Below the pieces are notes generated by a model that saw nothing but the letters and a program-made list of their open reading frames with translations, did not search any database and had not been told where the DNA came from. Shown here piece after piece: positions 920 to 29,709 of a stretch of DNA of 64,000 nt. Both the position numbers and the translations under genes were made by a program. The first letter of the stretch is position 1. Each line of letters opens with the position of its first letter. The DNA is from an uncultured Rhodospirillaceae bacterium (GTDB lineage Bacteria > Pseudomonadota > Alphaproteobacteria > UBA9219). Location of the stretch: assembly GCA_964453225.1 (NCBI GenBank), contig CAYVNS010000003.1, positions 29,218-93,217 on the forward strand, given 5' to 3'.

Positions 920-1026
920 GGGGGGATTTTTTGACATTGAATCATGGATTATGAAATATCCCGCTCTAGCCATTTATAAAGACAGCGATTCACGTTTCGC
1001 GGTCAAAAATGGCATTAAACAATGAA

Positions 1027-1740: not shown

Positions 1741-2417
1741 GCTTTGCCCCCTTTTTTTGATGACGGGGCATAAGCCATTTTCCAAAAGGTCTGGAATTGC
1801 TTGCGATAGGCATTCGTTACTGCGCGAGACCTGAACAACATAATTGTGGGTCCGGGCGTGGTGTCGAAATCCATGATCGCGAGAGTGTCGCCATAAATGT
1901 AGAACGGAACAGCCTGGAATACATCCTTCGATATCCAGCGGTACTCGTTATAGGCGGATGCGCAGAAATTCGTATCGCCTTCGCAGATAATGGCAAGAAC
2001 TTCGAGATCGCCGCGCGCATGAAAAACATCGGTCATGCGTTTGAGATAATACTGCGAAAATTCGTTACCAATAGTCGCTATGAAGGTAGTCTCATCGATT
2101 CCGAACATCATAATCGTGCCGCCATTTTTGCTGGCATATTCATGAACACCGTTAAAGAACTGCTGCAAGCCTTCGCGGCCAGTAAGAATATCGACAGTCG
2201 CCGGCCTGAGGCGGACGCCCTGACTATCGGTAAATTCGATTCCGCGTGTTTCCAAAATATTGCGGATCTTCCGCATTGTTTCATCGCGGTACACCGCCGT
2301 CTGATTAATAATCTTGTTCAGCGTATTGCGCCCGATCCCGGCTTCTGTTGCTAAGCTTTCTTGGGTTAGGCCCGAGAGAGCTATAGCTGCGGCGATTTGT
2401 GGGCCAGTGAGTCTCAT
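1737..2417 (-). CDS. XRE-family helix-turn-helix transcriptional regulator with an uncharacterised ~170-aa C-terminal domain
   Basis: N-terminal LTQESLATEAGIGRNTLNKIINQ is a classic XRE HTH. The MRLTGPQ start at 2417 is preferred over the track's 2453. Its stop is coupled to the downstream formyltransferase start. Confidence 0.6.
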   Translation of the reverse strand: MRLTGPQIAAAIALSGLTQESLATEAGIGRNTLNKIINQTAVYRDETMRKIRNILETRGIEFTDSQGVRLRPATVDILTGREGLQQFFNGVHEYASKNGGTIMMFGIDETTFIATIGNEFSQYYLKRMTDVFHARGDLEVLAIICEGDTNFCASAYNEYRWISKDVFQAVPFYIYGDTLAIMDFDTTPGPTIMLFRSRAVTNAYRKQFQTFWKMAYAPSSKKGGKA

Positions 2418-2656
2418 GGTAAAAGATTCCTTACTGAAATGCCGTTGTACCATACAATACTTTATGCACCGTTAAAAGGTACAAAATGATCAATTATGTT
2501 ATTCAGGCTTTTCAATAGGTTGTATCCGAAGTGTGCAGGATGCACCGCCAGAAGGTGCATATTGTATTGCTTTCATGGCAAAAATACGTACACTATCAAT
2601 ATAGGCGATGAAGAATATTTGGTTTTGTTGATATTACAAAGAGTTAGGGGATTTCG

Positions 2657-2833
2657 ATGCCGACATTCAATTTTGAGCAATTAGTTTCACGATATGGCGA
2701 TGTTTTGGCCTGGGAGTATTTGGCTGAAATTGAAAGGGCCGCATCGCTTCCTCCGCAGCAGCACATCGATGATCCTGAAATCCGCCTTGCTTATGCTCTT
2801 CAAGTTCAAGACCAATTTGCCCAAGCAGCTTAG
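2657..2833 (+). CDS. Small hypothetical protein (58 aa), paralogous to the N-terminus of the next ORF
   Basis: Read by hand (MPTFNFEQLVSRYGDVLAWEYLAEIERAAS...). AGGGG lies 7 nt upstream of the ATG. It is below the 60-aa cut-off of the ORF track. The region is AT-rich. Confidence 0.35.
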   Translation: MPTFNFEQLVSRYGDVLAWEYLAEIERAASLPPQQHIDDPEIRLAYALQVQDQFAQAA

Positions 2834-2842
2834 GGGCGCGCG

Positions 2843-3265
2843 ATGCAAAGGAATATCACCTACAGGGAACTGGTCGAGCGTTATGGGGATAAAATGGCCT
2901 ACGGCCTTCTGTTGACGCTGGAAAAGTCGGCCCAAATCCGGAACAATGTTGTTTATTTCGATGAAGAAATTCGCCTTGCCCGCATACTGGATGAAATGAA
3001 CAAGCCTTTGACACGGCACATGCGCGCGGCAAAGAACATGAACACGATGAGAAGAGACCTTCCCCCTGACGAATTAGACAGCTCCGACTTGATTTCCGTA
3101 CGCGCGCTTATTTCTTATGTGGCGCACACCAAAGGGCTTGACGAGGATGACGTTCGTTCGCTTGTTGAAAACTATTTTGGAACAAACGACATTAAGAACA
3201 TTCATCAGGCGGAATACAACAAAGCCGTTGCCTATCTTGTGGATATCGAAACGCGCGAAGCGTAA
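2843..3265 (+). CDS. Hypothetical protein (140 aa)
   Basis: Its N-terminus ([25 protein letters not shown]) parallels the preceding small ORF. AGGGG lies upstream of the ATG. No family was recognised. Confidence 0.45.
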
Positions 3266-3598
3266 ATATCCCCTTCCGTAATACCGCAACTTCAGACCCA
3301 GCCATTTGCATTCGCATTGTTTCAGTATGACGTTGATGTGAAAAAGTAGACGTCATTTATTACAGCCAAGAAAAACAAATCGGATTCCGGATAAAAGCCT
3401 CGCTACGCTTGGATTTTTCCGGAATGACGTACTTTCTAATTGAGTCTGCTCCCTATACCTCTCCCGCGAGCGCCTGGCCGCGCTGGATATGAGAAAAATT
3501 TTTAGTCCCTATTCTAAAAGGCTTTGGGTGGACAAGCGGCGCGAATGTCGTAGGATAGCAAGCTGTCGCTTTCCCGCATTCCTTTCTGTTGGCTGTTC

Positions 3599-4717
3599 AT
3601 GCTTGCTTATTTCATCCGGCGCCTTTTGCTGATCATCCCGACCTTGGTGGGCATCATGGCGCTGAATTTTTTGATCGTGCAGGCCGCGCCGGGCGGGCCG
3701 ATCGAACAGATTGTCGCGAAGTTGCACGGCACCGATGTGGCCGCGACCGCGCGCATCGGCGGATCGACCGGGGGGGATGTTTCGATGCCGCTTTCGCAAG
3801 CGACGAAAGGCAACGAGGCGTCGGACGTGACGGCGCGTTATCCCGGCGCGCAGGGGATCGACCCCGAACTGATTAAGGAGCTGGAAAAGCAATTCGGCTT
3901 CGACCAGCCTTTGCACAAGCGCTTTTTGACGATGATGGGGCGCTACCTGCAATTCGACTTCGGCAAATCCTATTTCCGGGATGAAAGCGTCGTTCAGCTG
4001 GTGCTGAACAAGATGCCAGTCTCGGTCTCGCTGGGGCTTTGGACGACGCTGATCGTTTACCTGATTTCCATTCCTCTTGGCATTCGCAAAGCCGTGAAAG
4101 ACGGCACCGCTTTCGATATGTGGAGCAGCGCCGCCATCATTGCGGGCTATGCCATTCCGAGCTTTTTGTTTGCCGTCTTGCTGATTGTCGTCTTTGCGGG
4201 CGGGCGTTATCTGGATTGGTTTCCCTTGCGCGGCCTGACCTCCGATAACTGGGGCGATATGGACTGGCCGCATCGCGTTCTTGATTACTTCTGGCATATC
4301 GCGCTGCCGGTGACGGCGCTTGTGATCGGCGGCTTTGCAAGCCTGACCATGCTGACCAAAAATTCTTTTTTAGACGAGATCAACAAGCAATATGTCTTAA
4401 CGGCGCGCGCGAAGGGATTGACCGAAAACCGCGTTCTTTACGGCCATGTTTTTCGCAACGCGATGCTGATCGTCATTGCCGGGTTTCCGACCGCGTTTCT
4501 TTCCGTTTTGTTTACCGGGTCTTTGTTGATCGAGGTGATTTTTTCGCTGGACGGGATGGGCCTTTTGGGGTTCGAGTCCGCCATTAACCGCGATTATCCT
4601 GTCATGTTCGGGACACTGTATTTCTTTACCCTATTGGGACTGATAATGAATGTTCTGGGCGATATGGCGTACGTGCTGACCGATCCCAGGATCGATTTCG
4701 AAACGCGCGAGGGCTAA
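3599..4717 (+). CDS. yejB: ABC transporter permease, YejB/OppB-like (peptide/microcin C-type importer inner membrane subunit)
   Basis: Near-full-length match in character to YejB ([34 protein letters not shown]...[10 protein letters not shown]...). It has the binding-protein-dependent transport signature. No yejA/E/F lie adjacent. Confidence 0.8.
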
Positions 4718-4960
4718 AAGGATTGTAATTTAATATTACTTTTTCCATATGAGCGGGTCGAAAAATAAACCATGTTTCTTTGCCCCATCGCCAAATCCGG
4801 CTCTTTTCAGAGCTTAAATCCATGCTTAACTTTCTGAAATTGTTATATTTAATACAGTTATCCCGCCTGGTGTGCTTTTTGTTAATAAATCCTACCATTT
4901 GTTAAAATTTGTGCTAAAGTATGCTTAACGAAGTACCCTTAAACACATGGGGCACCGATT

Positions 4961-5677
4961 ATGCGCGTTCTGCTTGTCGAAGACGATACCTCCGTTGCAA
5001 AAAGCATCGAATTGATGCTGCAGGCCGATGGTTTCATCGTTGATACGACCGATTTGGGCGAAGATGGCCTCGAGATCGGTAAGATTTATGATTATGATAT
5101 CATCATTCTGGATTTGATGTTGCCCGATATTGACGGCTACGAAGTCTTGCGCCGACTGCGCGCCGCGCGCGTGACGACGCCTATTCTGATCCTTTCGGGC
5201 CTTTCCGAGCTTGATAACAAAATCAAGGGCCTTGGGTTTGGCGCGGACGATTATTTAACCAAGCCTTTCGATCGCCGCGAACTTGTGGCGCGCATCCACG
5301 CGATCATTCGCCGCAGCAAAGGCCATTCGGACAGCGTCATTCGCACCGGCAAGCTGGTTGTCAATCTTGACACGCGCACCGTCGAAGTGGATGGATCGCC
5401 CTTGCATCTGACGGGCAAGGAATACGGCATTCTGGAACTCTTGTCGTTGCGCAAAGGCACGACCTTGACGAAGGAAATGTTCCTGAACCATCTGTATGGC
5501 GGCATGGATGAGCCGGAGCTGAAGATTATCGACGTCTTCGTTTGTAAGCTCCGCAAGAAGCTTGCGACGGCAGCCGGCGGCGAAAATTACATCGAAACCG
5601 TGTGGGGCCGCGGGTATGTTTTGCGCGATCCGCCGGGAACCGAAGCCGCACGCGCATCGGCGGCGAAGATGGCCTGA
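4961..5677 (+). CDS. ctrA: Cell-cycle response regulator CtrA (OmpR-family)
   Basis: MRVLLVEDD...[25 protein letters not shown]...[32 protein letters not shown] is almost invariant CtrA sequence. Confidence 0.92.
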
Positions 5678-14487: not shown

Positions 14488-14724
14488 TTCAATATTCCTG
14501 CACGAAATACACCTATTCTAACCCATACAGCGTTAATGCCGGATAAATTTCAGAACACGGGCGCGAAATATTAACAAAACCAGTTGGTTATACCAACGGC
14601 CTTAAATTCTGACACCTAGAGTCCGTTGGTATCCGAGGCGACTGCCGAGGCGGCGGCTTATGCCGCCGAAGGCCCTAAATTTTCTTCAAAAACGATTATG
14701 TGTCAAAATTTAGGGCCACTGGTA

Positions 14725-15968: not shown

Positions 15969-16838
15969 ATGCTGGTTGAGGCTAGCGGGAACGGCGCTTT
16001 ATGTAAACCTCCCGCCGGGCTTTATTTGGTCGCGACGCCCATCGGGCATTTGGGGGATATGACGTTGCGCGCGCTGGTGACTTTGGCCTCGGCGGATATC
16101 ATCGCGTGCGAGGATACGCGCAAGAGCGGGCTTATGCTGCGCGCTTTCGGCATAAAAAGTCCTACGCTGTCGTATCACGATCACAATGCGGACAACAGAA
16201 GGCCTGACATTTTAAAGCGGCTTGGCCGCGGCGAGGTTGTGGCGCTGATCTCGGACGCGGGCATGCCGGCTATCGCCGATCCGGGTTTCAAGCTGGTGCG
16301 CGCCTGCCGCGACGCCGGTTTCCTGGTAACCGTTCTTCCGGGCGCCAATGCGGCTTTGGCGGCGCTGGCTTCTTCGAGCTTGCCGACGGATCAGTTTCTC
16401 TTTGGCGGTTTTTTACCTCCCAAAAGCGCGGCGCGAAAGAAAACCGCTGCCATTTACAAAGCGCTTGCCGCGACCTTGGTTTTTTATGAATCCCCCGCGC
16501 GCCTTGCGGAAAGCCTTGGCGATTTGGCCGATGTTTTCGGGGCGATGAGACCGGCGGCCGTGGCGCGTGAACTTACAAAAATTTATGAAGAAGTGCGCAA
16601 GGGTACTTTGGGCGAATTGGCTGCCTATTATAGTGAGCATGAGGCTAGAGGAGAGATTGTGATTCTCGTCGGCAAGGACGCGCGCGAGGGATCCGACGTC
16701 CTGGATATCGACTCGCTGTTGGCGGAGCGGCTAAAAATTCTGAGCGTGCGCGATGCGACGGCGGAAGTGGCCGAAATGACAGGCCTGCCGAAGAAAGATG
16801 TTTATCTGCGCGCGCTTTCGCTAAAGGCGGCCAAATGA
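15969..16838 (+). CDS. rsmI: 16S rRNA (cytidine1402-2'-O)-methyltransferase
   Basis: LYLVATPIGHLGDMTLRAL...IIACEDTRKSG is the tetrapyrrole-methylase fold. Start at the MLVEAS ATG, 15969. Confidence 0.85.
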   Translation: MLVEASGNGALCKPPAGLYLVATPIGHLGDMTLRALVTLASADIIACEDTRKSGLMLRAFGIKSPTLSYHDHNADNRRPDILKRLGRGEVVALISDAGMPAIADPGFKLVRACRDAGFLVTVLPGANAALAALASSSLPTDQFLFGGFLPPKSAARKKTAAIYKALAATLVFYESPARLAESLGDLADVFGAMRPAAVARELTKIYEEVRKGTLGELAAYYSEHEARGEIVILVGKDAREGSDVLDIDSLLAERLKILSVRDATAEVAEMTGLPKKDVYLRALSLKAAK

Positions 16839-17185
16839 CGCGCACGTCGTATCAAACGGGGATTCTGGCCGAAAAATTGTGCTGTTTGGCCTTGCGCTTG
16901 AAATTATACCGTATCTTAGCGGTGCGTTACAAAACCGCTTTCGGGGAGATTGACGTTATCGCCGCGCGCGGCCAAACCGTTGCCGCGGTGGAAGTGAAGG
17001 CGCGCGCGACAAAGGAAGCCGCGCTTGAAGCCATTTCCTTGAAACAGCGGACACGCATTGCCCGCGCTTTGCAAAATTTCGTACTGCGCGAGCCGCGGTA
17101 TGCCGGCGCCGATCTGCGTTTCGATGTGATGCTGGCCGTCCCGCGAAAATGGCCGGTGCATATAAAGAACGCGTGGCGCATCTAG
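16835..17185 (+). CDS. yraN: YraN/UPF0102 family endonuclease-like protein
   Basis: GEIDVIAARGQTVAAVEVKAR is the conserved YraN core. A 4-nt overlap joins it to rsmI. Confidence 0.75.
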   Translation: MTRTSYQTGILAEKLCCLALRLKLYRILAVRYKTAFGEIDVIAARGQTVAAVEVKARATKEAALEAISLKQRTRIARALQNFVLREPRYAGADLRFDVMLAVPRKWPVHIKNAWRI

Positions 17186-17315
17186 ACCGCGATCCGTCCA
17201 GATGGAAAGCATCTCTTGCTTCCATCTGGACGGTGAATCGCCGGTCTTATATAATATATAGGTAGAGCCTTTTCCGCCCTTCAGAAACAATTCCATGAAT
17301 TCGGAAAAGGCTCTA
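17183..17315. repeat. Two-hairpin intergenic repeat element, copy A (RIME/REP-like)
   Basis: SL1 at 17194-17233 is a 14-bp stem (ccgtccagatggaa/ttccatctggacgg). SL2 at 17263-17315 is a 14-bp stem (tagagccttttccg/cggaaaaggctcta). A near-identical copy lies at 26905-27031. Confidence 0.65.
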
Positions 17316-17376
17316 AAAAACGGCGGCAGGGGCGCGTTTGCCCTTGCCGCCGCCGTTCGATATCAATGCCTTAGGC

Positions 17377-17955
17377 TTAGCCCTTGGCGCCAAGCGGCAG
17401 AACCGCTTTGCCATACGTCTCGTTCAGGACTTGAGCAACCGCCGTGTAAATCGCCGACAAGCCGCAGACGATGCCTTCGACGCCCGCGAGGTGCGTGATC
17501 CTTTCGGATTGCGTCCAGTCACCGATCGCAAGCAGAAAGAACAGTACCGCGAGCGAGCCGAAGACGAATTGCAGCGCCTTGCTTGCGCGCAAGGTGCCGA
17601 TGAACATGAAAAGCGTAAAGACGCCCCACAAGGCAAGGAAAGTGCCCATCGTCGCTTTTTCCGGCCCGACGACGCCAAGCGACGTTTTCGGAAGGATGAT
17701 CAGCCCGACCAGCGTGAGCCAGAAGATGCCGTAGCTTGTGAAAGCTGTGGTGCCGAAGGTGTTGCCTTTTTTCCATTCCATGATGCCGGCGATGATCTGC
17801 GCCAAACCGCCGTAAAAAAAGCCCATCGCCAGGATCATCGAGTCCATCGGGTAGTAGCCTGCGTTATGGAAATTAAGCAAGACGGTCGTCATGCCAAACC
17901 CCAGTAGCCCAAGCGGCGCTGGATTTGCCGTCATATCATTTGTGTGTGCGGTCAT
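17377..17955 (-). CDS. satP: GPR1/FUN34/YaaH family succinate-acetate/proton symporter
   Basis: [23 protein letters not shown] and six TM segments are diagnostic. Confidence 0.8.
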
Positions 17956-18194: not shown

Positions 18195-21100
18195 TTAGCT
18201 TATTTTCTTGGCGCCGGCGGTTGCCTGTGCTTCGAGCGTGCGGCTGACGGCGTCCGTTAAGCCATCCCCTGTCGCTTCGAGCTGCATCAGGATTTGGCCC
18301 AAGCTTCGCATCAGGTCTTCGCCTTGCGTTTTTAAGGCCGTTCTCATGCGGTCCGTGCGCTGCTGCATTTCATCGATGCTTTTGTTCATGCCGACGACCT
18401 GGTTGTGCGCGTCGCTGACGCCCTTGTTCAACGCGGTCGTTTGATCGTTGTAGATCTGGCCGATGCCGCGCATGATGCCCGCCGCCGTGTTGGCGCCGGC
18501 CGCCATGTTGCTCATTTGCGACTGAACGGCGGTGACGACTTCATCCAGCTTTTCGATGGCATGGACGCTGAGGTCGCCCGACAGGGCGCGCGTGTTTTCA
18601 ACCTTTTCGGCGATGGTGGACAGATGCGACAGGAGCTGTTGCAGATGTTCGAGCGCGCTGCCTTCTTGCGATTTGATGTCGGCGCCGGCCTGAGCCATGT
18701 GGTCGATCATTTGGTCGAACTTGCCGCTGAACGACGCCAGCAAGCGGCTGACCTCTTCCATCGACTGGCGCATTCTGTTCGTGCCCGCATCGACTTGCGC
18801 GACCGCCGTTGCGCCCGTTTCCTCAAACCGCTTGCTAACGCGTTCGACATCGGAGACCGCGCCGACCGTCGTGGAGCGCAGGCTTGTGCTTGTGCGTTCC
18901 AGTTGCGCCGTGATTTTCATCAGGCCGTTGCTGATTTCGTCGATCTGGCCTTGCAGCGCGCCACGGATGCTTTCCATGTGGTCGCGCAACGTATCGCCCG
19001 TCGTGACGATGCGGTTTTCGGCCCGCGTCGTCGCTTCGGAAATCGCCTCGATCTGCTTGACGATGCCTTCGCCGGCCTGCGCCAGGCGTCCGCCTGTCGT
19101 CGCCGCGCGCTGGTCGAGCTGGTCGAAATCGCGGACGAGGCGTTCCGCCGTCACCGTGGCTTCGTTTCTTAGGGTCAACAGGCGCTGGCCCGCTTCGGCA
19201 AGCGAATCGACGCCGACGCTGGCCTTTTCGATCAGATCGCGCTGTTCGCCCGAAAGCTTGGCCGTGCTTTGCTGCATGGCGGCCACTTGCTCGGCCAACA
19301 GCTGGTTGAAGCCGTTGAGGATGCGCCCGGCGTCTTCCGCAACGCCGCCGACGCGTTTCATCTCTTCGACCATATTGCTTCGCGTCGACGCGGTGACGGA
19401 GATGAAGCGATCCGCCGTGTCGATCATCGCCTTGTTGGCGTCCATCGACTGGGCTTTCAGCGCTCGCGCGGCCGTTTCAATATCGATGAGGCCTTCCTTC
19501 AACGTGGCGGGCAACTGCTTCGCCTCGTTCTTCAGGCTTTCCGAAACCTTCGCAAAGGCTTGTTCGGACTTGGCCAGGTTCGTGCGCAAGGTATCGTTCT
19601 GCATCGCCAGCGCCTTGGACGCGCCCAGCACATGCTCGGCCGCCTTATGCGACAGATCGGAGAGATGTTGCAGCTGGCCTTGCATCGCGCCTTTGACTTC
19701 TTCGATGCGCGACGCGGCCCGTTCGACGACTTCGTGGCCCGCTTTTTCCGTGGCGGTGATCGTATCGCGCAAGACAGCCAGGCGCGTTGTGGCGTATTCC
19801 GCCGCGTTGGCCAAGGCTTCCGTCTGCGTTTCGGCCTTGTCGCCCATCTCCCCCACCACGCGCAGGTGGGCGTGCATTTTTTCGCCGATGCTTGTCAGGC
19901 GGCCTTCGGATTGATCCAGCGTTTGCGACAAGGCTTCGGTTTGGCTGCGAATAAGCTCGGCGCCGTCTTTCGTGACTTCGGTGAAGCGCTTGGTCGTTTG
20001 ATCGAGCGACTGCACGGAATCGCGCAAATGGACGGCTTGTTCCCCGATGCCGGAAGCAGCGGAGACAATGCCGCGCAATTGTTGCTCGGCCTTCTGGCCT
20101 TCGTGATTCAGGGCCACCGCCTGCTGGGCGAAACCGCCGACCGACGCGGCGACATTGGCGAGCGTTTCCTGCGCCTTCGTTCCGATGGCGTCCATGCTGT
20201 GGGTGATGCTCGTCGCGCTTTCTTGCAGGCGCTCGGCCGTACGTTCCGCCGTGGCCGCCGTTTCGTTTTGCACGCCCATAAAGCGCGTGATGAGCCCGCC
20301 GATGGTATCGCGCTGCGAGTCCAACGCGATGGCAAGCGTTTTCTGCCGGTCGTCGATTTGCTGCAAGGCCTTGGCCAAAAGCCCCGCCTTTTCGCCGATG
20401 GATTGCTGAACCGAGGACAGCGTTTTTTCGGCCGAATATCCCGCTTCGTGCATATCATGCGCGCCGGCGGAGAGGCGGCCCAAAAGCGCGTCCAGGGTTT
20501 CGTTGGTTCGCTCGCCGTCGGCTTGCATGGACAGGCGCAGATCGTAGATCTGGCCGTGCAGGCTTGTCGTCGTCGAGAAGATGGTCTGCGCCTGTTCTTC
20601 GATGCGCTTGGCTTCGATATCGATGGCTTCGGCTTCCTTGGCGAAGGATTCCGTGGCCGTGCGGACGCTGCTAAGCGCGCTTTGCGCCCGCGTGTCGATA
20701 ACGTCGGCGCTGATGGCGATTTTCTGCGCGTCTTGCGTCAGGCGCGTGGTGAGGCGATCCGACGATTGGATCGTTTCCGCCTGCGCGTCGGCAAGCCGTT
20801 CGAACAGGGACTTGATGATCTCGCGCTGGGAATCGAGCGAGGTGCCGAGCTGTTGCTGGCGATCGTTGATCTGCTGAACCAGGGCGGCGAGCGCGGCGCA
20901 TTGCTGCGTCGCGTTGTTGCCGAGAGTCATCAGGGACATTTCCGTCGAGGAGCTGATGTCCCGCAGTTCAGCCGAACCCGCCGTAATCTTGCTGAGCAGC
21001 GAGCCGTAGACCGAGTTCGTGAGATCGCCCTCTTCGCGCAGCGTGGCGCACAACGCGCCCAGCTTTTCGTTGGCGCCGGAGGCGGACGTGACAATGACGC

Positions 21101-24100
21101 GCGCATCCTCTTCCGTTTGGCGCGCTTTCTTTTCGATGGATTCGGCCTCATAGGCGAACCCGGCCGTGGCTTTTTGCAGGCTGTTGAGGGCGTCGTGCGC
21201 GCGCCTGTCGATGGTGCCGACGCTGGTCGTGATTTGCGTCACGCTTTCGGTTAGACGATTGGCGGCGCGTTCGGCTACCGACGCCGTTTCCTCCTGAACG
21301 CCGGTAAGGCGCGACATCAAGCCGTCGATCACGTCGCGCTGGGCGTTAAGCGCCGTCGTCAGCGTGCGCTGGCGGTCGCCGATCTGATTCATGGAGACGT
21401 TCAATTCGCCCGCCTGCTGTTCGAGCGCGTGATGCAGCGTGGTGAGCGCGGCGTTTGTGCTGGCGCCGATGTCGCGCACGTCGCCGCCGCCTTTTGTCAG
21501 GCGTTCGAGCAGCATTTGCAGGCTTTCGCCCGCGCGTTCGCTTTCGTTTTGCAGGCTGAGGCGCAACTGGTGCGCCTGTTCCTGCAAGGCCGAGGTCGCC
21601 GTAAGGACGGTGCGCGCCTGCTGTTCCGCCGCCTGCGCGTTTTGAAGAAGGAGCGAGGCCTGATCGGTAAAGCCCATGCTGGCGATCTTGACGTTGCCGA
21701 TGGCGGCCTGGGATTTGTCGCCGACGTCGCCGACCTGGCGCTCGATATCCTTCAGCGCGCTGGACAGATAGGCGATGGTGCGCTCGGCAATGCCGGACGC
21801 TTCCGCGTGCGCGGCGCTGAGTTTGTCGAACAATTCGAACATCTGGACGCGTTGTTTCTCGGTGGATTCCGCCAAGACGCGTTGCTGCTCGCCGATTTGA
21901 TCGCCCACGACGGCCAACGTCGCCGCCTGCTGCGTAACGTGCGCGCCGAGCGTGGAGAGCGTTTTTTCCGCCCGTTCGGCCATGGCGTGCAGTTCCTGCG
22001 TGGATTTGTCGATCGTCTTCGTGCTGCCGGAGGCCATATCGTTAAAGCGCTGCGTCGCCTGATCGGCCCCGCGCGTCGCCGTGTCGGCCACCTGGCGCAG
22101 CTTGCCTTCCGCCCCCGTAAGACGCGCGACGGAATCTTCCAGGTGCGACAAAAGCAGGCTGTTTTCCTGTTCCATATTGACGCGGATGGACGAGGCTTGA
22201 TCGGTAAGCGTGCCCGTGGCTTTCGACAGCTGGTCGAGCAGACCCGCGATCTCTTGCCCGCCGTCGACGAGCTTGACCGTATGCTCGCCGAAGGTGCCGG
22301 CCGCGCCGACAATCGCGTCCGCCGCGGTTTGCGCCGCGTGGGTCATCGTGTTCGTGCGATCCTGGAACGCCGTGATGGTGTCGTCGAGCTTGGAGAGAGC
22401 CTTCTGGCTGTACATGAGCGAGGTTTCATGCGCCGCCGCCATTTTGGCGTTGAGCGTTGAGAGCGTTTCCGCCGCACGGTCGCTGCTGACGGAAATTTTG
22501 CCCGCGTGCATTTCGATTTTGGCCGCATCGGTGGCGATTTGATCGGCCTCGCGCTGCAGGGCGCTGTGCAGCGTGTCGACCTTAATCTGCGCCGCGTTGA
22601 CCGTTTGATCCATCTTATCGGTAACCTCGCTGTAACGCGTCGCGGCGCGATCCAAAAGGACATGCGCGGCGGAGGCGCGTTCGCGCACAATCTCGCCGAG
22701 CATCGTGAATTTTTGTTCAGCGCCGGTAAGATCGCTCGAAATGGCTTCGGTCTGCTGGCGCAGGAGCGTTTCGATACGCGACGCTTCCGCCGTAAGGGAA
22801 GAGGCGACATCCTTGACATGCGTTGCGGACGTCTTGGCCTTTTCCAGCATCTGGTAAGACTCTTCGCCCACGCTGCGCGCGGCCTGCTGTAAGCATTCGA
22901 GCGCATGCGCGGCCTGCCCGTCGAGACCTTGGGTTTCGCGTTTCAGGCTGTCGGACAAATCCGTGAACTGCGCCAGGGTCTGGCGCGCGGCGTCTTCCTG
23001 CGTCGCGCGGGCGGCGCCAAATCTTTCCTCGAGCGTTTCCAGCGCGAGCACGGTATCGGCGGTCGCGCGGCTCATTTGATGGCTCATGCCCTGAACGCGG
23101 GAATGGAAATCCTGCAGGCGGCCAACCTGGGTTGACAGGCCTTCGCCGTAAACGCCCAGCGATTGCAGCCCCTGCTCGGCGCTGGCACCAATGGCGTCCA
23201 CCGCCTTTTGCACCGGCGTAACGGCCTGCGCGGCGAAGCTTTGCATCTTTTGATCCGTCGTCGCCAACTGATTCTGCGTTTCGGACAAAAGGGTCAACAG
23301 GCCCGCTGAATGATCGCGCAAATTCTTGCTGGCGACTTCCGCCTGCGCTTGCAGTTTCTGCACCGCTTCGAGCAGAATCGCTTCGCTGGCGCGGGTTTTG
23401 CCCGAGAGATCGCTTTGCTGGCGGCCAAAATTCTCGGTGGCGGCGGAAATGGCGCGCGTGCTGAGCTGGACGGTCTCGCCAAGGCGCTGAACCATCTTTT
23501 CGTTCTGGGCCATGGCGTCGTTGATATCCTTGGCCAGCTTCTCGCCGACGCTTTGGGTCGCATCGCGCACGGAGAGGACGCGTTCGAGCACTTGCTGAAG
23601 GTTTTGCAAAGCGACGCTGGCGCGGGTTTCGACTTCCTTGCCGGCCTTGTTGGACGCGACGTTCAGTTCTTCGAACTGCGCCACATGGCGCGCTATTTCA
23701 TCGGCCATATTCTTCATATGGTCGTTGCTGTCGCTGGACAGGGTGCGCAAGCGCGTGAGCGCTCCTTCGTACTTGCCCGTCGTTTCATCCAGATGGGCGG
23801 CGATGGCTTCGGCATTCGCGCGCGCATCGTCATTAACGGCGGAGAAGCGCGCCATGGTGCCGTCGGTGCGCATATTAAGATCCGAGACCGATTTCTCGAA
23901 GGAATTGATGAACTCCGAGGTCGTGGAACCGACGCGGTCGATCAGATGGTTCAAATCGCTTTGGCGGCGGTCGAGGCTGGCGTCCACGTCCACAAGACGG
24001 CCCATAAAGCGCTCCATAAGCGTTTGGAGCCCATCTGCCTGATGCGCGAGATGGTCGCTGAGCTTATTGGCTTGCTCGTGCGCAAGCTGTTCGCTGGCGT

Positions 24101-25208
24101 AAAGGCGGTCGGCCACGCCGCGAAGGATGGATTCGGCTTCGCCGACACGCACGGGAAGCGTCGTGCTGAGATCTTCCAGCGTGCGGGTTTGAGCGTCGAG
24201 CGCGTGGGTCATGCGTTCGGACTCTTCGCGGGCGGCCGAGGCACGCTCTAAAAAGCGCGCGACGCTAAGATCGATTTTGCTCGAGAGGCCGCTGAGCGTT
24301 TCGCTGGCGGCTTCGGCGGCCGTCGAAAGGCTGGATTCTTGTAAACGGGACGTATCGGCAAGCCTTTGGGTATCGAGTTGGGCGCGTTCCAGCGATTGCG
24401 AGATTTGAACCGTTGCCTGCTCGACTTCCTCCAGCATTTTGGAGACCTGCTCCCCGATGCCTTCGACTTGACGCGCAACGCCGTCGCCGTTTTTCTGCAA
24501 TTTCCCGTCGAGAACGCGCAGCATCGTGAATTTATCGTCCATCATCTGTTCGATCTGGAACATGCTGCGGCGCACGACGTCCTGGATTTCCTTGACTTGC
24601 TGCGCGCTGACGTTTTCGAAGCGCTCCAGATCCGCCCGGTGCTGCTGCACGCGGTCCATGATGGCTTCCAGATCTTCCTGGCTGACGGATTGCGCGCTGC
24701 GCAAAAGGTCGATCTGCTCACGGATCGCCTGATTAAAACGGCGGATGCGCGCATCGGCCGCGCCGGACTCGCCCGTAATAAGCGTGAGCTGGCGGCGCAA
24801 GGGGTCGGCGACGGATTCAACGTCGGACGCGCGCTGCAAGTAAGCCGTGATCATCCAGATCATGGCGACGGGAGAAACGGATGCGGAAATGCCAATGGCC
24901 CAGTCGACCAGAGAAACGCCGCCCAGGGTACGCTCGGGGCCGGACGTGCCGATGATCGCGATAACGCCGGACACCCACGCAAGAGAAATGCCCAAGCCAA
25001 TCCAGAAAGGCAAAGACGATGCCTTGGATATTTTCGGAATCGATATCTTTTTTCCGGTCGGCGGCTTGATTGCTAGTGGTGCGGGCGTATGAGCAGGAGA
25101 AGAAGTTAGGGGAGTCTTCTGCAGGGCCATTTTGATCCTCGACATTCCGGTATTAATCCCGCAAAAAGCACATACGTTTCCCCGCTCGTTTCGAGAAGGG
25201 AACGACAT
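18195..25208 (-). CDS. Giant membrane-anchored coiled-coil protein (2,337 aa), two N-terminal TM helices, internal tandem repeats
   Basis: Uninterrupted 7,014-nt ORF. ATG at 25208; an alternative start MALQK at 25130 is preceded by GAGG. TM1 is FWIGLGISLAWVSGVIAIIG and TM2 is WAIGISASVSPVAMIWMITAYL. The remainder is Ala/Gln/Glu/Leu/Thr-rich helical sequence. A candidate hairpin terminator lies at ~18130-18170. Confidence 0.75.
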   Translation of the reverse strand: MSFPSRNERGNVCAFCGINTGMSRIKMALQKTPLTSSPAHTPAPLAIKPPTGKKISIPKISKASSLPFWIGLGISLAWVSGVIAIIGTSGPERTLGGVSLVDWAIGISASVSPVAMIWMITAYLQRASDVESVADPLRRQLTLITGESGAADARIRRFNQAIREQIDLLRSAQSVSQEDLEAIMDRVQQHRADLERFENVSAQQVKEIQDVVRRSMFQIEQMMDDKFTMLRVLDGKLQKNGDGVARQVEGIGEQVSKMLEEVEQATVQISQSLERAQLDTQRLADTSRLQESSLSTAAEAASETLSGLSSKIDLSVARFLERASAAREESERMTHALDAQTRTLEDLSTTLPVRVGEAESILRGVADRLYASEQLAHEQANKLSDHLAHQADGLQTLMERFMGRLVDVDASLDRRQSDLNHLIDRVGSTTSEFINSFEKSVSDLNMRTDGTMARFSAVNDDARANAEAIAAHLDETTGKYEGALTRLRTLSSDSNDHMKNMADEIARHVAQFEELNVASNKAGKEVETRASVALQNLQQVLERVLSVRDATQSVGEKLAKDINDAMAQNEKMVQRLGETVQLSTRAISAATENFGRQQSDLSGKTRASEAILLEAVQKLQAQAEVASKNLRDHSAGLLTLLSETQNQLATTDQKMQSFAAQAVTPVQKAVDAIGASAEQGLQSLGVYGEGLSTQVGRLQDFHSRVQGMSHQMSRATADTVLALETLEERFGAARATQEDAARQTLAQFTDLSDSLKRETQGLDGQAAHALECLQQAARSVGEESYQMLEKAKTSATHVKDVASSLTAEASRIETLLRQQTEAISSDLTGAEQKFTMLGEIVRERASAAHVLLDRAATRYSEVTDKMDQTVNAAQIKVDTLHSALQREADQIATDAAKIEMHAGKISVSSDRAAETLSTLNAKMAAAHETSLMYSQKALSKLDDTITAFQDRTNTMTHAAQTAADAIVGAAGTFGEHTVKLVDGGQEIAGLLDQLSKATGTLTDQASSIRVNMEQENSLLLSHLEDSVARLTGAEGKLRQVADTATRGADQATQRFNDMASGSTKTIDKSTQELHAMAERAEKTLSTLGAHVTQQAATLAVVGDQIGEQQRVLAESTEKQRVQMFELFDKLSAAHAEASGIAERTIAYLSSALKDIERQVGDVGDKSQAAIGNVKIASMGFTDQASLLLQNAQAAEQQARTVLTATSALQEQAHQLRLSLQNESERAGESLQMLLERLTKGGGDVRDIGASTNAALTTLHHALEQQAGELNVSMNQIGDRQRTLTTALNAQRDVIDGLMSRLTGVQEETASVAERAANRLTESVTQITTSVGTIDRRAHDALNSLQKATAGFAYEAESIEKKARQTEEDARVIVTSASGANEKLGALCATLREEGDLTNSVYGSLLSKITAGSAELRDISSSTEMSLMTLGNNATQQCAALAALVQQINDRQQQLGTSLDSQREIIKSLFERLADAQAETIQSSDRLTTRLTQDAQKIAISADVIDTRAQSALSSVRTATESFAKEAEAIDIEAKRIEEQAQTIFSTTTSLHGQIYDLRLSMQADGERTNETLDALLGRLSAGAHDMHEAGYSAEKTLSSVQQSIGEKAGLLAKALQQIDDRQKTLAIALDSQRDTIGGLITRFMGVQNETAATAERTAERLQESATSITHSMDAIGTKAQETLANVAASVGGFAQQAVALNHEGQKAEQQLRGIVSAASGIGEQAVHLRDSVQSLDQTTKRFTEVTKDGAELIRSQTEALSQTLDQSEGRLTSIGEKMHAHLRVVGEMGDKAETQTEALANAAEYATTRLAVLRDTITATEKAGHEVVERAASRIEEVKGAMQGQLQHLSDLSHKAAEHVLGASKALAMQNDTLRTNLAKSEQAFAKVSESLKNEAKQLPATLKEGLIDIETAARALKAQSMDANKAMIDTADRFISVTASTRSNMVEEMKRVGGVAEDAGRILNGFNQLLAEQVAAMQQSTAKLSGEQRDLIEKASVGVDSLAEAGQRLLTLRNEATVTAERLVRDFDQLDQRAATTGGRLAQAGEGIVKQIEAISEATTRAENRIVTTGDTLRDHMESIRGALQGQIDEISNGLMKITAQLERTSTSLRSTTVGAVSDVERVSKRFEETGATAVAQVDAGTNRMRQSMEEVSRLLASFSGKFDQMIDHMAQAGADIKSQEGSALEHLQQLLSHLSTIAEKVENTRALSGDLSVHAIEKLDEVVTAVQSQMSNMAAGANTAAGIMRGIGQIYNDQTTALNKGVSDAHNQVVGMNKSIDEMQQRTDRMRTALKTQGEDLMRSLGQILMQLEATGDGLTDAVSRTLEAQATAGAKKIS

Positions 25209-25560
25209 TGCCTTTTAGGGGCTAGATACTAAGGTTTATAACATAACAGTTTTTTGGGTCAGAATGGAAGCGTTAACAGAGATTAAGTGAAAAAATCTGT
25301 TAGCAACTTCAAAGGCGATACCCCTCGCAGCATTGATACGAATCCGGAATAATTGTGCACTCTCACCAATTTTTTGTGCGCAGCAAAGGTGCAGCATTTT
25401 TTAAGCAGGGCACTAAGACTGGCTGTTGGGGGTGGGACGCGGCTGACAGACTAGGGATAGGGCTTGGCCTTTGTTTTCGACGACAGTTGCGCCGGCCATT
25501 CAGGCGGGTTAACATTTGCCCGTGGACACCTTGCCTCCCCCTTCACGCCGGTTGCCGCTC

Positions 25561-26871
25561 ATGCTGCGGTTCAAGCGTCTTTTGCCGCGCAGCCTGTTTG
25601 GCCGCATGCTTTTGATTTTCGTTTTGCCGACCTTTATCATGTTGGCGGCCGCGACCTATGTCTTTTTCGAAAGGCACTGGTACACCGTTACCAAGCGGAT
25701 GACCTATGCGCTGGCCGGCGATGTCGCCTTTATCGTCGAGCTTCTGGAAAACAGCAAAAACATGGATACTTTCGAAGGCGTGAAGACCCTTGCCTACGAA
25801 AAGATGAATCTGACGGTCACCTTCATGCCGGGACAGACCTTGCCGCCGCGCACGTCACGGTATTTGGGACCTATCGGCGTCATTCTGAAACATGCCTTAA
25901 ACGACAATCTGTCATACAGCTATGTCCTTGATATGTCTTATGCGCCGGAGACCATCAGCGTGAAAGTGGGGGTTCCCGAAGGCGTTTATTCGATCCTTTC
26001 GCCGGAGCGGCGCGTTTACACGCCAACCACGAAGGTATTCATTATCTGGTTGACGGGGAGCTCTTTGCTTCTTACGACCATCGCCTTGATCTTTATGCGA
26101 AATCAGATCCGCCCTGTACGAAGGCTGGCCGAGGCGGCCGAGGCCATCGGCAAGGGGCGCGAGGTGCCCTGGTTTAAGCTGGAGGGGTCTTCCGAAGTAA
26201 GACAGGCTGGCTCGGCCCTGATGGTTATGCGGGATCGGCTTAAACGGCAGATTACCCAGCGGACGGCCATGCTGGCGGGCGTTTCGCACGATTTGCGCAC
26301 CCCCCTGACGCGCATGCGCCTTCAGATCGAACTTATGGGCGCAACCCCCGATACGGGCGAGCTTTTGTCTGACGTGGCCGAGATGGAGGATATGCTGAAC
26401 GCCTATCTGGCTTTTGCGCGAAGCGAAGAAGCCGAAGTGGCCCAGCCCGTTGATTTGCAGGAATTTTTATCCGAAATGGTCGCAACCGCACGCCGGCAGA
26501 ATCCGCATATCTCTTTGGCGGCCCCGGAAGGCATTAAGGTGATCATGCGCCGCAATGCCATGAAGCGGTGTTTAGGGAATTTGATCAATAACGCGCTTCG
26601 TTACGGGGCGCATGCGGAAGTTAAGGCCTCTGTGGCGGATCAGATCGCCACGATTACGCTGGACGACGACGGGCCCGGCATCGAAGCCGCGCGGCGCGAG
26701 GAAATGTTCCGGCCCTTTACGCGCATCGAGGAATCGCGCAATCCGGCAACGGGTGGCGTTGGGCTTGGCCTGACGATCGCCCGCGACATTGCCCGCTTTC
26801 ACGGCGGGGATGTTATTTTAGAAGATAGTCCTTTGGGCGGACTAAGGGCCCGGGTTTGGATTCCCGTGTAG
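25561..26871 (+). CDS. EnvZ/CenK-like sensor histidine kinase (2 TM, periplasmic loop, HAMP, HisKA, HATPase)
   Basis: MLRFKRLLPRSLFGRMLLIFVL aligns with the EnvZ N-terminus. H-box GVSHDLRTPLTRMRL; G-boxes DDDGPGI and GGVGLGL. No adjacent response regulator. Confidence 0.8.
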   Translation: MLRFKRLLPRSLFGRMLLIFVLPTFIMLAAATYVFFERHWYTVTKRMTYALAGDVAFIVELLENSKNMDTFEGVKTLAYEKMNLTVTFMPGQTLPPRTSRYLGPIGVILKHALNDNLSYSYVLDMSYAPETISVKVGVPEGVYSILSPERRVYTPTTKVFIIWLTGSSLLLTTIALIFMRNQIRPVRRLAEAAEAIGKGREVPWFKLEGSSEVRQAGSALMVMRDRLKRQITQRTAMLAGVSHDLRTPLTRMRLQIELMGATPDTGELLSDVAEMEDMLNAYLAFARSEEAEVAQPVDLQEFLSEMVATARRQNPHISLAAPEGIKVIMRRNAMKRCLGNLINNALRYGAHAEVKASVADQIATITLDDDGPGIEAARREEMFRPFTRIEESRNPATGGVGLGLTIARDIARFHGGDVILEDSPLGGLRARVWIPV

Positions 26872-26904
26872 GAAAATTCATTAGGACATTAGTTTTGGGT
26901 CTAT

Positions 26905-27031
26905 TAGACCGCGATCCCTCCAGATGGAGGCATCTCTTGCTTCCATCTGGAGGGTGAATCGCTGGTCTTTTATATAGGTAGAGCATTTTCCGCCCTTCAG
27001 AACCGATTCCATGAATTCGGAAAATGCTCTA
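26905..27031. repeat. Two-hairpin intergenic repeat element, copy B
   Basis: Same architecture as copy A. SL1 is ccctccagatggag/ttccatctggaggg; SL2 is tagagcattttccg/cggaaaatgctcta. Both stems carry compensatory substitutions relative to copy A. Confidence 0.65.
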
Positions 27032-27102
27032 ATTCCGGTGGCAACGCAAAAAGCGCGCTACAAAGCGCAAATGCGTGGTTAATTGTTATTAGACAAAGCC
27101 TA

Positions 27103-29709
27103 TTAAAGCTGGCGCGCGATTTCCTCGATCTCGAAGCATTCGATCACGTCGCCGGGCTGAATGTTATCGTAATTCTCGAACGCCATGCCGCACTCGAAGC
27201 CTTCGCGGACTTCCTTAACTTCATCTTTCAGGCGCTTAAGCGTTTTGAGCGCGCCTTCGTGGATCACGACGTTATCGCGGAGCAGGCGCACCTTGGCGCC
27301 GCGGCGAACAACGCCTTCGGTGATTTTGCAGCCCGCCACCTTACCGACCTTCGTGATGTTGAAGACCTGAAGGATCTGGGCGTTGCCCAAAAAGTTTTCG
27401 CGCAAGGTCGGCGAGAGAAGGCCGGAAAGCGCTTGCTTCACGTCGTCGATCACATTGTAGATAATCGAGTAATAGCGCAGTTCGACCGCGTCGCGCTTGG
27501 CCATTTCGCGGGCTTGCGCGTTCGCGCGAACATTGAAGCCGATGATCATGGCTCCCGAGGCTTTCGCCAGCGTCACGTCGGATTCCGTGATCGGCCCGAC
27601 CGCCGAATCCAGCACGCGGACTTTGACTTCCGTGTTTTCGTCGGTCAGTTTCACGAGCGCGTTCTTGATCGCTTCGACGGAGCCGTGCACGTCGCCCTTG
27701 ATAAGGACGGCAAGTTCCTTGGCCGCGCCCGTTTTGATGTTTTGCATCATTTGCTCGAACGTGCCGCGCGGCGTTGAGGCCGCCGCCGCGATGGCGCGCT
27801 TGCGGCGCGCGCGGTATTCGGCAATTTCGCGCGCCTTGGCTTCGTCCGCCACGACAAGCAGCTCGTCCCCCGCCATCGGCGTGCTGTTAAGCCCCAGGAC
27901 TTCGACGGGCATCGCCGGAGTCGCTTCGGTGACGGTTTTGCCGCGGTCGTTGATAATCGCGCGCACTTTGCCCCATTCGCTGCCCGCAACAAATATGTCG
28001 CCGACGCGCAAGGTGCCGCGCCGTATGAGAATGGTCGCCACCGAGCCTCGGCCCTTTTCCATTTTAGCTTCGACAATTGCGCCTTCGGCGGCGCGGCTGG
28101 GGTTGGCCTTGAGATCGAGAATTTCGGCTTGCAGCAAAAGGGAATCCAGAAGCTTGTCGAGGCCCTTTTTGGTCTTGGCGGAAATTTCAACCGACAGGAC
28201 TTCGCCGCCCATATCTTCGACCTGAATGTCGTGCTGCAATAATTCCTGCTTCACCCGCGCGGGGTTGGCCGCCGGCAGATCGCACTTGTTAATGGCAACG
28301 ACGAGCGGCACCCCTGCCGCCTTCGCGTGGCGAATGGCCTCGATCGTTTGCGGCATGATGCCGTCATCCGCCGCGACGACCAGTACGACGATGTCGGTGA
28401 TTTGCGCGCCGCGCGAACGCATTTCCGTAAAGGCCGCGTGGCCCGGCGTGTCGATGAACGTGACGCGGTCGAACCCGTGCGTTCTCTGGGGCAGGACCAC
28501 TTGATAGGCGCCGATGTGCTGCGTGATGCCGCCCGCTTCGCCCGACACGACGTTTTCGTGGCGCAGGGCATCCAGAAGCGAGGTTTTGCCGTGGTCGACA
28601 TGGCCCATCACCGTGACAACCGGCGGGCGGGGCAACAGGTTTTCGGGGGCGTCTTCGCCGCCGCCGAGATCAGATTCGATATCGGCCTCGGTCACGCGCT
28701 TGATACGGTGGCCGAATTCCGTTGCGATCAATTCCGCCGTATCGGCATCGATGGTTTGCGTAATCGTCGCCATGACGCCCAGCTTCATTAGCGCCTTGAT
28801 GACGTCCACGCTGCGCTCGGCCATGCGGTTGGCGAGCTCCTGCACCGTGATGGCTTCGGGAAGCGTGACATCGCGCGTCACCTTGACTTGTTCCTGCGGC
28901 TGCACCATCGCTTCGCGGCGGTGGCGTTCCGCGCGACGGCGAATGGAGGCGATCGACCGGCGGCGGCCGCCGCTTTCTTCGTCGGAGAGAACCTGAACGA
29001 CGTTGACTTTGTGACCGGTGCGGCGTTCGTCGCCGATGCGGCGCGTGCCGGGGGTCGCGCGGCCCGGACGGCGGCGGCTGGTGTCTTCTTCTTCCTCTTT
29101 CCCGGTTGTGCGACGGGACATCGGGGGACGCCCCGAGAGGCTTTCGCCGGGACGCGCCAGCATGCTGCGCCCGCGGTCGTCAGCCGTGCCGGAGGCGCGG
29201 CGGGAGGCTTGCAGGTCGCGTTGGCGCACCTCGTCTTCCTGTTTCTTGCGCGCGCTCTCGGTTTTTTCCTGTTCCTGAATACGGCGCATTTCCTCCAGCT
29301 CGCGCTGCCTCAAGGCATCGCGGGTCAAGGGCGCGGCGGGGACTTCGGGTTCCGGCGGGCGAACGACTTCCGCCCTGAAATATTCCGGCTCCGTCCTGTC
29401 GGATTCCGTGGCGGCGCCGCGCAACGCGCGGGCGCGGGCTTCGCGCTCATCCGCCGTAAGGCTATGCAAAACGGCGCTGGTGGAGCGGCCGCTTTTGCTG
29501 ACCGTTGTTTTGCCGTCAGCCGCGCGCGCGCCCTTAACTTCGCTTTCGCCGCGCTTCGGCTTCTTGGCTTCGACGACAACGGCTTTCGAACGCCCATGTG
29601 AAAAACTTTGCCGCACGGTTTCGGCTCCGCCGGACGCCGGGGCTTTTTTCAGCTCCAGTTTCGGTCGCCCTCCAAGGCTTAGGACTTTCTTTTGCTTATC
29701 TTCCGTCAT
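27103..29709 (-). CDS. infB: Translation initiation factor IF-2
   Basis: G-domain [21 protein letters not shown]; C-terminal beta-barrels; Arg/Glu-rich N-terminal region. Confidence 0.95.

Follow-up and report, generated by a model that had tools for sequence, protein, structure and literature searches.

A stretch of 64 kb from an uncultured alphaproteobacterium, referred to here as the window, carries two copies of a small intergenic repeat that moved into its present positions. We read copies A and B, with a probability of about 0.62, as members of a small repeat of MITE/REP-like type that is dispersed, non-autonomous and restricted to its lineage and whose hairpins are kept for propagation. 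The lineage is an uncultured alphaproteobacterial one occurring in anaerobic-digester metagenomes. Insertion brought the copies into two promoter-free gaps, unrelated to each other and each bounded by convergent genes, and the divergence of A and B left both palindromes perfectly preserved. Convergent, promoter-free gaps of this sort are the least harmful sites for an insertion. A first-pass annotation of the same DNA had described the two copies as a structured repeat family with compensatory stem mutations and had offered bidirectional terminators, RIME/REP-like mosaics, a small RNA or a MITE as explanations. Every statement that it made about the sequence itself checked out, and the explanations fared differently, as set out below with the evidence that bears on each.

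Copy A occupies positions 17183 to 17316 of the plus strand (134 nt, GC 0.45) and copy B positions 26905 to 27032 in the same orientation (128 nt), with covariance model scores of 169.8 and 155.5 bits and nhmmer E-values of 4e-48 and 9e-45, respectively. Both open with TAGACCGCGATCC, at 17183 and 26905, and both close with GCTCTAA. Of the 134 columns in their alignment, 119 are identical, 9 hold substitutions and 6 are gap positions, the last belonging to two indels of 1 nt and 5 nt; identity amounts to 93% when aligned bases are counted and to 88.8% by BLAST, and the longest identical run is 22 nt at most. Identity runs from TAGACC to CTCTAA and similarity ends sharply on either side, where the flanks are unrelated. 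The element is also set off by composition, with a GC content of 0.45 compared to approximately 0.57 in its surroundings. Coordinates, alignment and sequence therefore confirm that the copies share an architecture and a common start, as had been proposed. No tRNA-derived or tandem-repeat origin was found for the element.

Within the window, nhmmer and an unfiltered covariance model built from A and B recovered two significant copies only. A candidate third copy on the minus strand, at 914-1026, was set aside as unproven after it returned E = 0.79 with nhmmer and 7.6 bits (E = 2.8) with the unfiltered covariance model. This look-alike has a 31-nt match of 77%, a similar layout and a location between convergent genes, and it has GTGAATCGCTG..TCTTTATA..TAGAGC in common with the element, while its second hairpin differs in sequence.

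The window as a whole is an ordinary alphaproteobacterial housekeeping region, which includes the 3' end of dnaE, spoT/relA, glyA, nrdR, rsmI, yraN, infB-nusA-rimP and rpoN, and further lepB-rnc-era, purH, motAB, dnaK, fabF, thrC, der and bamB. Copy A is flanked by yraN/UPF0102 (16835-17185, plus strand) and a SatP/YaaH-family gene (17377-17955, minus strand), and copy B by a gene for an EnvZ-like histidine kinase (25516-26871, plus strand) and infB (27103-29709, minus strand). The strands of these flanking genes confirm a convergent junction for both copies, a type that accounts for about 11 of the roughly 53 in the window. The first three bases of copy A are the TAG stop codon of yraN. On the other side, the SatP/YaaH-family gene ends in an intrinsic terminator hairpin (17321-17352, minus strand), a host feature outside the repeat; the T-run of this hairpin (the complement of 17315-17320) adjoins the right end of copy A, and a hairpin is found at the equivalent position in L016, an assembly of the sister species considered below. 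A second host feature, 3' of infB (27054-27069, minus strand), is a terminator-like hairpin with CTTTTT directly behind it; it lies between the infB stop codon and copy B.

Because the two copies visible here are 9.7 kb apart on a metagenome-assembled contig, we considered segmental duplication, assembly artefact or chance similarity as the source of the pair, and regard the probability of any of these as negligible. A segmental duplication would carry flanking sequence with it, and here similarity stops at the element ends with unrelated genes on either side; the nhmmer E-values given above speak against chance. As for assembly, two Logan contigs from SRR8925805, a biogas-plant digestate metagenome of PRJNA533495 (PMC7842101), represent the same organism and match the window at 100% identity, one running from yraN into the element and the other from the SatP-family gene into the element. 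An independent assembly thereby reproduces both junctions of copy A exactly, and the insertion is therefore not an artefact of the metagenome-assembled genome. The two contigs end at 17236 and 17257, each 30 nt from a site that varies between A and B (17206 and 17287), and Logan graphs are built at k = 31 with pieces shorter than 150 nt dropped (PMC12424806). These ends fit another A-like copy in that metagenome sharing the 80-nt core 17207-17286, which is only suggestive: the other Logan contig ends (21642, 61478 and 63813) fall in ordinary coding sequence, and the contigs are 2-4 kb long, so that a contig break within the element is weak evidence for more copies.

The case for insertion comes from a comparison with the closest relatives available, a sister species in which the kinase is 84% identical. 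Five assemblies of this species were compared (L016, L024 [GCA_964517415.1], L025, L026 and L027), and in all five the gene order at both sites is identical to that of the window and both element sites are empty. In the sister species, the spacer that separates yraN from the SatP-family gene measures 65 nt, and the one that separates the kinase gene from infB measures 31 nt. By BLAST, L024 is colinear with the window from 15494 to 37058 (21.5 kb, approximately 78% identity), and the only two length-discordant gaps in this alignment are the element sites, with the same result for L016; the gaps are 85 nt in the sister species versus 208 nt in the window (+123) and 33 nt versus 233 nt (+200). 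Intergenic DNA of the sister species is too diverged for the precise pre-insertion sequence to be read from it. A single sister lineage without the element leaves insertion versus deletion unpolarised, and the polarity rests on divergence: third-codon-position identity between the two species is 55-65% (four genes), compared to 93% between A and B. The common ancestor of A and B is therefore much younger than the species split, and at least one copy is a recent insertion made after the lineage separated from its sister species.

The more distant relatives L018-L022 have a different synteny and no copy. Searches with nhmmer and the covariance model across approximately 125 kb of related DNA uncovered no further member, and a weak match in L018/L019 (E = 0.02) was dismissed as unrelated sequence in the ylxR-infB spacer. 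These comparisons show two traits of a MITE, namely two copies with unrelated flanks and empty orthologous sites in five sister assemblies. Together with the contrast between the divergence of the copies and that of the species, the unrelated loci and the empty sites bear out the first-pass suggestion of a REP/RIME-like mosaic or MITE.

The ends of the element point to a target dinucleotide. A TA is present at either end of both copies, and when the element plus one TA is removed from copy A, the remaining sequence reads ATC-TAA-AAAACGG and the yraN stop codon is restored. The restored stop lies at the position used by the sister species, whose protein is also 116 aa long and ends in TAA; with both TAs removed, more than 30 codons follow in yraN before any stop. 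Most likely, then, one of the terminal TAs is part of the target. Judged from the sequence, insertion was probably into TA, with or without duplication, and a TA may be carried by the element. That is, the TA at one end would belong to the target either through TA duplication or with a single TA carried by the element. For copy A, the target would have been the TA of the ancestral yraN TAA stop, overlapping the T-run of the neighboring terminator, and the empty site predicted under the TA-target reading is ATCTAAAAAACGG. Terminal inverted repeats of the element as a whole are weak (TAGACCGCGATCC versus the reverse complement of the right end, TAGAGCCTTTTCC, 8/13), the right end reading ...GGAAAAGGCTCTA, and each hairpin by itself is a foldback with long inverted arms.

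Both copies consist of two hairpins joined by a short linker. Hairpin 1 of copy A (17184-17247, plus strand) is a bulged helix of approximately 27 bp with a folding energy of -43.5 kcal/mol and z = -9.3. Its outer stem pairs AGACC/GGTCT and GCGAT/ATCGC and is interrupted by a bulged C and by TGA as a 3-nt bulge; its inner stem of 14 bp pairs CCGTCCAGATGGAA with TTCCATCTGGACGG (17194-17207 / 17220-17233); and at the tip 3 further pairs close a 5-nt loop. The 14-bp first stem described previously is thus real, and it is only the core of this longer, bulged hairpin. The corresponding hairpin of copy B (26906-26968, plus strand; -47.8 kcal/mol, z = -9.0) has C:G as its compensated pair and is without a bulged A. 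The linker, composed of A/T plus GG, is TATATAATATATAGG in copy A (17248-17262, plus strand) and TTTATATAGG in copy B (26969-26978, plus strand), where it is 5 nt shorter. The TATAAT that the first reading had noted in the spacer is present at 17250-17255 and belongs to copy A only. Hairpin 2 of copy A (17263-17315, plus strand; -24.6 kcal/mol, z = -5.9) was found with the architecture previously assigned to it, a 14-bp stem (17263-17276 / 17302-17315, arms TAGAGCCTTTTCCG/CGGAAAAGGCTCTA) and a 25-nt loop (17277-17301) that is identical between the copies at 23 of 25 nt. Its counterpart in copy B (26979-27031, plus strand) carries the A:U version of the compensated pair. The sequences of hairpins 1 and 2 are unrelated to one another.

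When the elements were folded as RNA with short flanks, copy A reached -81.6 kcal/mol and copy B -77.0 kcal/mol (z = -8.9 and -7.8), and folding as single-stranded DNA gave z = -13.0 (A) and -11.2 (B); no shuffled sequence matched the stability of the native fold of either copy. The proposed folding check thus returned two strong hairpins in each copy with extreme z-scores. Energies are similar on the two strands, at -43.5/-47.8 kcal/mol (A/B) on the plus strand versus -43.1/-43.5 kcal/mol on the minus strand for hairpin 1, and -24.6/-22.2 versus -27.0/-24.4 kcal/mol for hairpin 2. No strand preference in folding was found between plus and minus with RNA or DNA parameters.

The differences between A and B are distributed in a manner that spares base pairing. 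In the RNAalifold consensus, columns 16/51 (G:C to C:G) and 89/129 (C:G to A:U) are both paired, which confirms the compensatory changes reported for both stems and shows that the covarying positions are not unpaired in a consensus fold. There is one A:U to G:U change besides, and none of the 48 pairs is broken. All 5 stem differences keep pairing; a bulge, the hairpin 2 loop and the linker hold the others. In a simulation in which 9 random substitutions were placed on copy A, the probability of no broken pair was 3.4e-4, and that of at least two compensated pairs with none broken was 1.7e-5, or about 2 in 100,000. From these values and the absence of any broken pair it follows that the symmetry of the palindromes is actively kept. 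Selection on RNA secondary structure is not established by this, since the structure is a palindrome in the DNA, and both of its strands form the hairpins with equal ease under RNA and DNA parameters alike. In DNA, a single event of intrastrand templating (quasipalindrome correction) is also known to leave an inverted repeat with a pair of changes that look “compensatory”. Compensatory changes within a DNA palindrome are, by themselves, no demonstration of selection on RNA structure, and for researchers who work on repeats this is a caution of general use. Under the preferred reading of a dispersed, non-autonomous repeat, the simplest explanation of the preserved palindromes is that propagation would require the hairpins as DNA structure, either as foldback ends or as single-strand hairpins, for recognition by a transposase whose gene would lie in another part of the genome; repair templated by the palindrome may contribute to the symmetry of the arms.

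Wherever it inserts behind a gene, such an element would become part of that gene's transcript. The inserted copies would form the 3' untranslated ends of the upstream plus-strand genes, yraN and the kinase gene, where hairpin 1 and the U/A-rich linker could terminate or stabilize the transcript, as a tolerated or mildly useful side effect and not as the reason for the element. Such RNA-level effects at the ends of the yraN and kinase transcripts are an inference only. The 27-bp helix is also a plausible substrate for RNase III, and rnc is present in the window at 36351-37052.

A stronger version of this idea, in which the repeat is an RNA-level 3' element kept as a terminator or mRNA-stabilizing cassette for convergent genes and its spread is secondary, seems to us unlikely. 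Transcripts of the plus strand would meet hairpin 1 and then the linker, and those of the minus strand hairpin 2 and then the linker. Such a role would suit the location of both copies exactly where convergent genes end, each oriented alike with respect to its plus-strand gene, and yraN and the kinase gene have no other obvious terminator before the element. It would also suit the stems, where all changes preserve pairing, among them the one A:U to G:U change, which pairs on the plus strand only. In copy B, UUUAUAUA (5 U in 8) follows directly after hairpin 1, but the corresponding tail of copy A, UAUAUAAU, has only 4 U in 8, and the minus-strand tail after hairpin 2 begins CCUAUAUA. Neither long hairpin was flagged by a consensus terminator scan, whose rules call for 3-8 nt in the loop and 5 T in 8. 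Both minus-strand genes, moreover, end at a hairpin and T-run of their own before the element is reached, the sister species does without the element at both sites, and the two strands fold equally well, with nothing to favor RNA over DNA. The bidirectional terminator proposed in the first-pass annotation is consistent with the data only in part: the minus-strand genes have their own terminators, the U-tracts are mediocre and the scan left the hairpins unflagged.

A family of trans-acting small RNA genes, transcribed from the linker or from an upstream promoter, is a further RNA-level reading, and one that we hold to be extremely unlikely. In copy A, TGGACG (17227) and TATAAT are separated by 17 nt and agree with the promoter consensus at 10 of 12 positions, and strong structure combined with the near-constant loop of hairpin 2 would not be out of place in a small RNA. 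The TATAAT is, however, lost from copy B by the 5-nt deletion in the linker, so that the promoter-like arrangement of copy A is incidental, and a promoter was rejected as a trait of the family. On the plus strand, a good U-tract is missing behind both hairpins. Rfam gave no match at gathering score across the whole window, and at a relaxed threshold yielded generic miRNA-precursor hairpins only (at most 25 bits versus cut-offs of 78-90; E of 0.007 or weaker). With the element missing from both loci of the sister species and from the rest of the approximately 125 kb of related DNA, and with neither an Rfam match nor a conserved promoter/terminator pair, the earlier suggestion of a small RNA finds no support.

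If the hairpins are kept as DNA, the type of mobility to which they belong becomes the next question. One specific form is a single-stranded DNA hairpin element of the IS200/IS605-PATE or REP/REPIN-RAYT type, moved by a Y1 (HUH) transposase without target duplication, with the two subterminal hairpins as left-end and right-end recognition structures and a short target. The layout is suggestive of such an element, having two strong subterminal hairpins, a short linker and weak whole-element inverted repeats, and under DNA-folding parameters both palindromes stay strictly symmetrical. The sequence before hairpin 2 is GGTAG, with the GTAG tetranucleotide that is typical of REPs, but before hairpin 1 it is CTAG or TTAG, and both hairpins are much longer than those of REPs. 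The two hairpins are unrelated, whereas ends bound by a single TnpA are normally similar, and the 25-nt loop is atypical for a REP. The copies share one orientation, and GC skew is positive on that strand, but two copies are too few to speak of an orientation bias. The left flanks (CATC versus CTAT) share no conserved tetra- or pentanucleotide. No transposase, Y1 or otherwise, and no RAYT or IS was detected in the 64-kb window by a Pfam scan of 55 ORFs (the 54 listed for the window plus yraN). Taken together, these features render the single-stranded type distinctly unlikely.

We also entertained a mobile “convergent-gene insulator” of a type not described before, in which two unrelated hairpins and an AT linker would be moved as a unit by a hairpin-recognizing enzyme so far not associated with elements of this sort, and would be kept for two-way termination. 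We consider this very unlikely; if true, it would constitute a new structural class of bacterial miniature element, beyond REP and MITE.

Searches outside the window placed the dispersed repeat in no sequence family. A blastn search of copy A against 72,556 PLSDB plasmids returned no match, as did a blastn search of the element against phages and one at word size 11 against 5,426 complete E. coli genomes, in which ERIC/IRU, REP, BIME and similar repeats occur. A degenerate pattern drawn from A, B and the putative third copy matched 6 times in GTDB representatives, 8 times in JGI metagenomes and 0 times in IMG/VR, all attributable to chance, in collections that do not include the source genome; two further exact-core scans of IMG/VR returned nothing. 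Six-frame translations of the element had no match in a collection of 5.8 billion proteins, and no called protein extends across it. A literature search on its sequence motifs brought up unrelated primer matches only.

The find is a modest one: an unnamed, cleanly bounded family of miniature repeats from an uncultured alphaproteobacterium of anaerobic digesters, with a clear contrast between insertion and empty site in comparison with its sister species. One of its copies landed on the stop codon of yraN and supplies a new one. For annotators, it is a sequence that breaks short-read assemblies and that can be mistaken for sRNA genes or terminators. The element opens no new question.

Correia elements (NEMIS) of Neisseria are non-coding, dispersed and intergenic, measure roughly 100-155 bp, a range that includes the element, and can act as terminators or RNase III targets. 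The element is like them in its probable TA target, in forming hairpins when transcribed and in its incidental promoter-like hexamers. Correia elements have clear 26-bp terminal inverted repeats, fold as a whole into one hairpin and contain an IHF site. The element, in contrast, has two side-by-side hairpins and weak ends as a whole, shares no sequence similarity with Correia and resides in an alphaproteobacterial host. With REP, BIME and REPIN sequences it shares the character of short, extragenic, structured palindromes at convergent 3' ends, in mosaic units. REPs are about 35 nt long with small loops, have copy numbers in the hundreds and go together with a RAYT gene, whereas the hairpins of the element are 64 and 53 nt long, one with a 25-nt loop, and there is no RAYT in the window.

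PATEs derived from IS200/IS605 likewise have two subterminal hairpins with little between them and no real terminal inverted repeats. The left-end and right-end hairpins of PATEs resemble each other and flank conserved cleavage tetranucleotides; the element has neither similar end hairpins nor such tetranucleotides. Pneumococcal BOX, RUP and SPRITE repeats are of a modular, mosaic build and form stable RNA structures when co-transcribed, and RUP targets TA. They differ from the element in host phylum, in their unrelated sequence and in their boxA-boxB-boxC order of modules, as opposed to two hairpins and an AT linker. These three pneumococcal families are introduced in one account as small interspersed repeats (PMC3049150).

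Closer to the host, RIME1 of Sinorhizobium/Rhizobium is built from two large palindromes. Like the element, RIME1 is alphaproteobacterial, intergenic and non-coding; the comparison is by description, with the matchless plasmid search of copy A as an indirect check only, and the element has been seen in one uncultured lineage. One paper (PMC2573895) describes the RIME1 repeats (Osteras et al. 1995) as lying between genes, conserved in sequence and secondary structure and without a known function. The element was not placed in any of these families on account of the lack of sequence similarity where it was tested, the weak whole-element repeats, the unrelated hairpins, the REP-atypical sizes and the lack of a visible transposase. 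It is not a new kind of system; the most fitting label is a new family, as yet without a name, within the well-known miniature intergenic repeats. By analogy, its behavior most closely resembles that of Correia/NEMIS and the REP/BIME/RIME mosaics, and its layout recalls RIME1 and the PATEs.

At copy A of the two-hairpin repeat, yraN ends on a stop codon that the element provides with its opening three bases (17183-17185). We infer that the ancestral yraN TAA stop overlapped the opposite-strand T-run (17315-17320) of the terminator of the neighboring SatP-family gene, and therefore that the element split an overlap between stop codon and terminator. In the sister-species assembly L016 (1890-1905), and equivalently in a second such assembly, L024, the yraN stop is followed on its 3' side by a 16-nt spacer, TTCAAATAGACACGCA. 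Within this spacer, TAGACACGCA is similar to the element's left end (TAGACCGCGA), a likeness that could reflect coincidence, target preference, or a footprint.

Compared with the sister species, in which the spacer measures 31 nt, site B, between genes for an EnvZ-like kinase and infB, carries a surplus of about 72 nt over the element itself. This extra DNA lies within the flanks of copy B (26872-26904 and 27033-27102), and includes the infB terminator-like hairpin together with two TAGAC-type motifs: GGTCTAT immediately 5' of the element, which is palindromic with TAGACC, and TTAGACAAAG at 27089.

The minus strand at 914-1026 holds what may be a degenerate relative of the repeat, between another convergent pair: the 3' end of a dnaE-like gene (110-919, plus strand) and a formyltransferase-like gene (1027-1785, minus strand). 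This candidate has GACCGCGA, GTGAATCGCTG, TCTTTATA and TAGAGC in common with the repeat; inner hairpin 1 is absent from it, and the stem of its second hairpin differs in sequence. Searches with models built from copies A and B gave it no statistical significance (nhmmer E = 0.79; covariance model E = 2.8).

Several other features of the window were recorded. The GC content falls to 0.46-0.52 at ~1000-5000, compared to about 0.57. This patch contains the formyltransferase-like gene and an HTH_3 protein, along with ORFs that lack a Pfam match, and may be a small acquired island. AT-rich intergenic DNA adjoining lppC contains a perfect palindrome (14673-14717), its arms 12 bp long (GGCCCTAAATTT...AAATTTAGGGCC), and L007, a Logan contig, starts 2 bases ahead of it. 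A giant minus-strand ORF (18195-25208; 2337 aa), in which no Pfam domains were found, shows strongly negative AT skew throughout its length. ORFs of 2311-2354 aa, likewise without a Pfam match, occupy the matching position in L016, L024 and the more distant relative L022.
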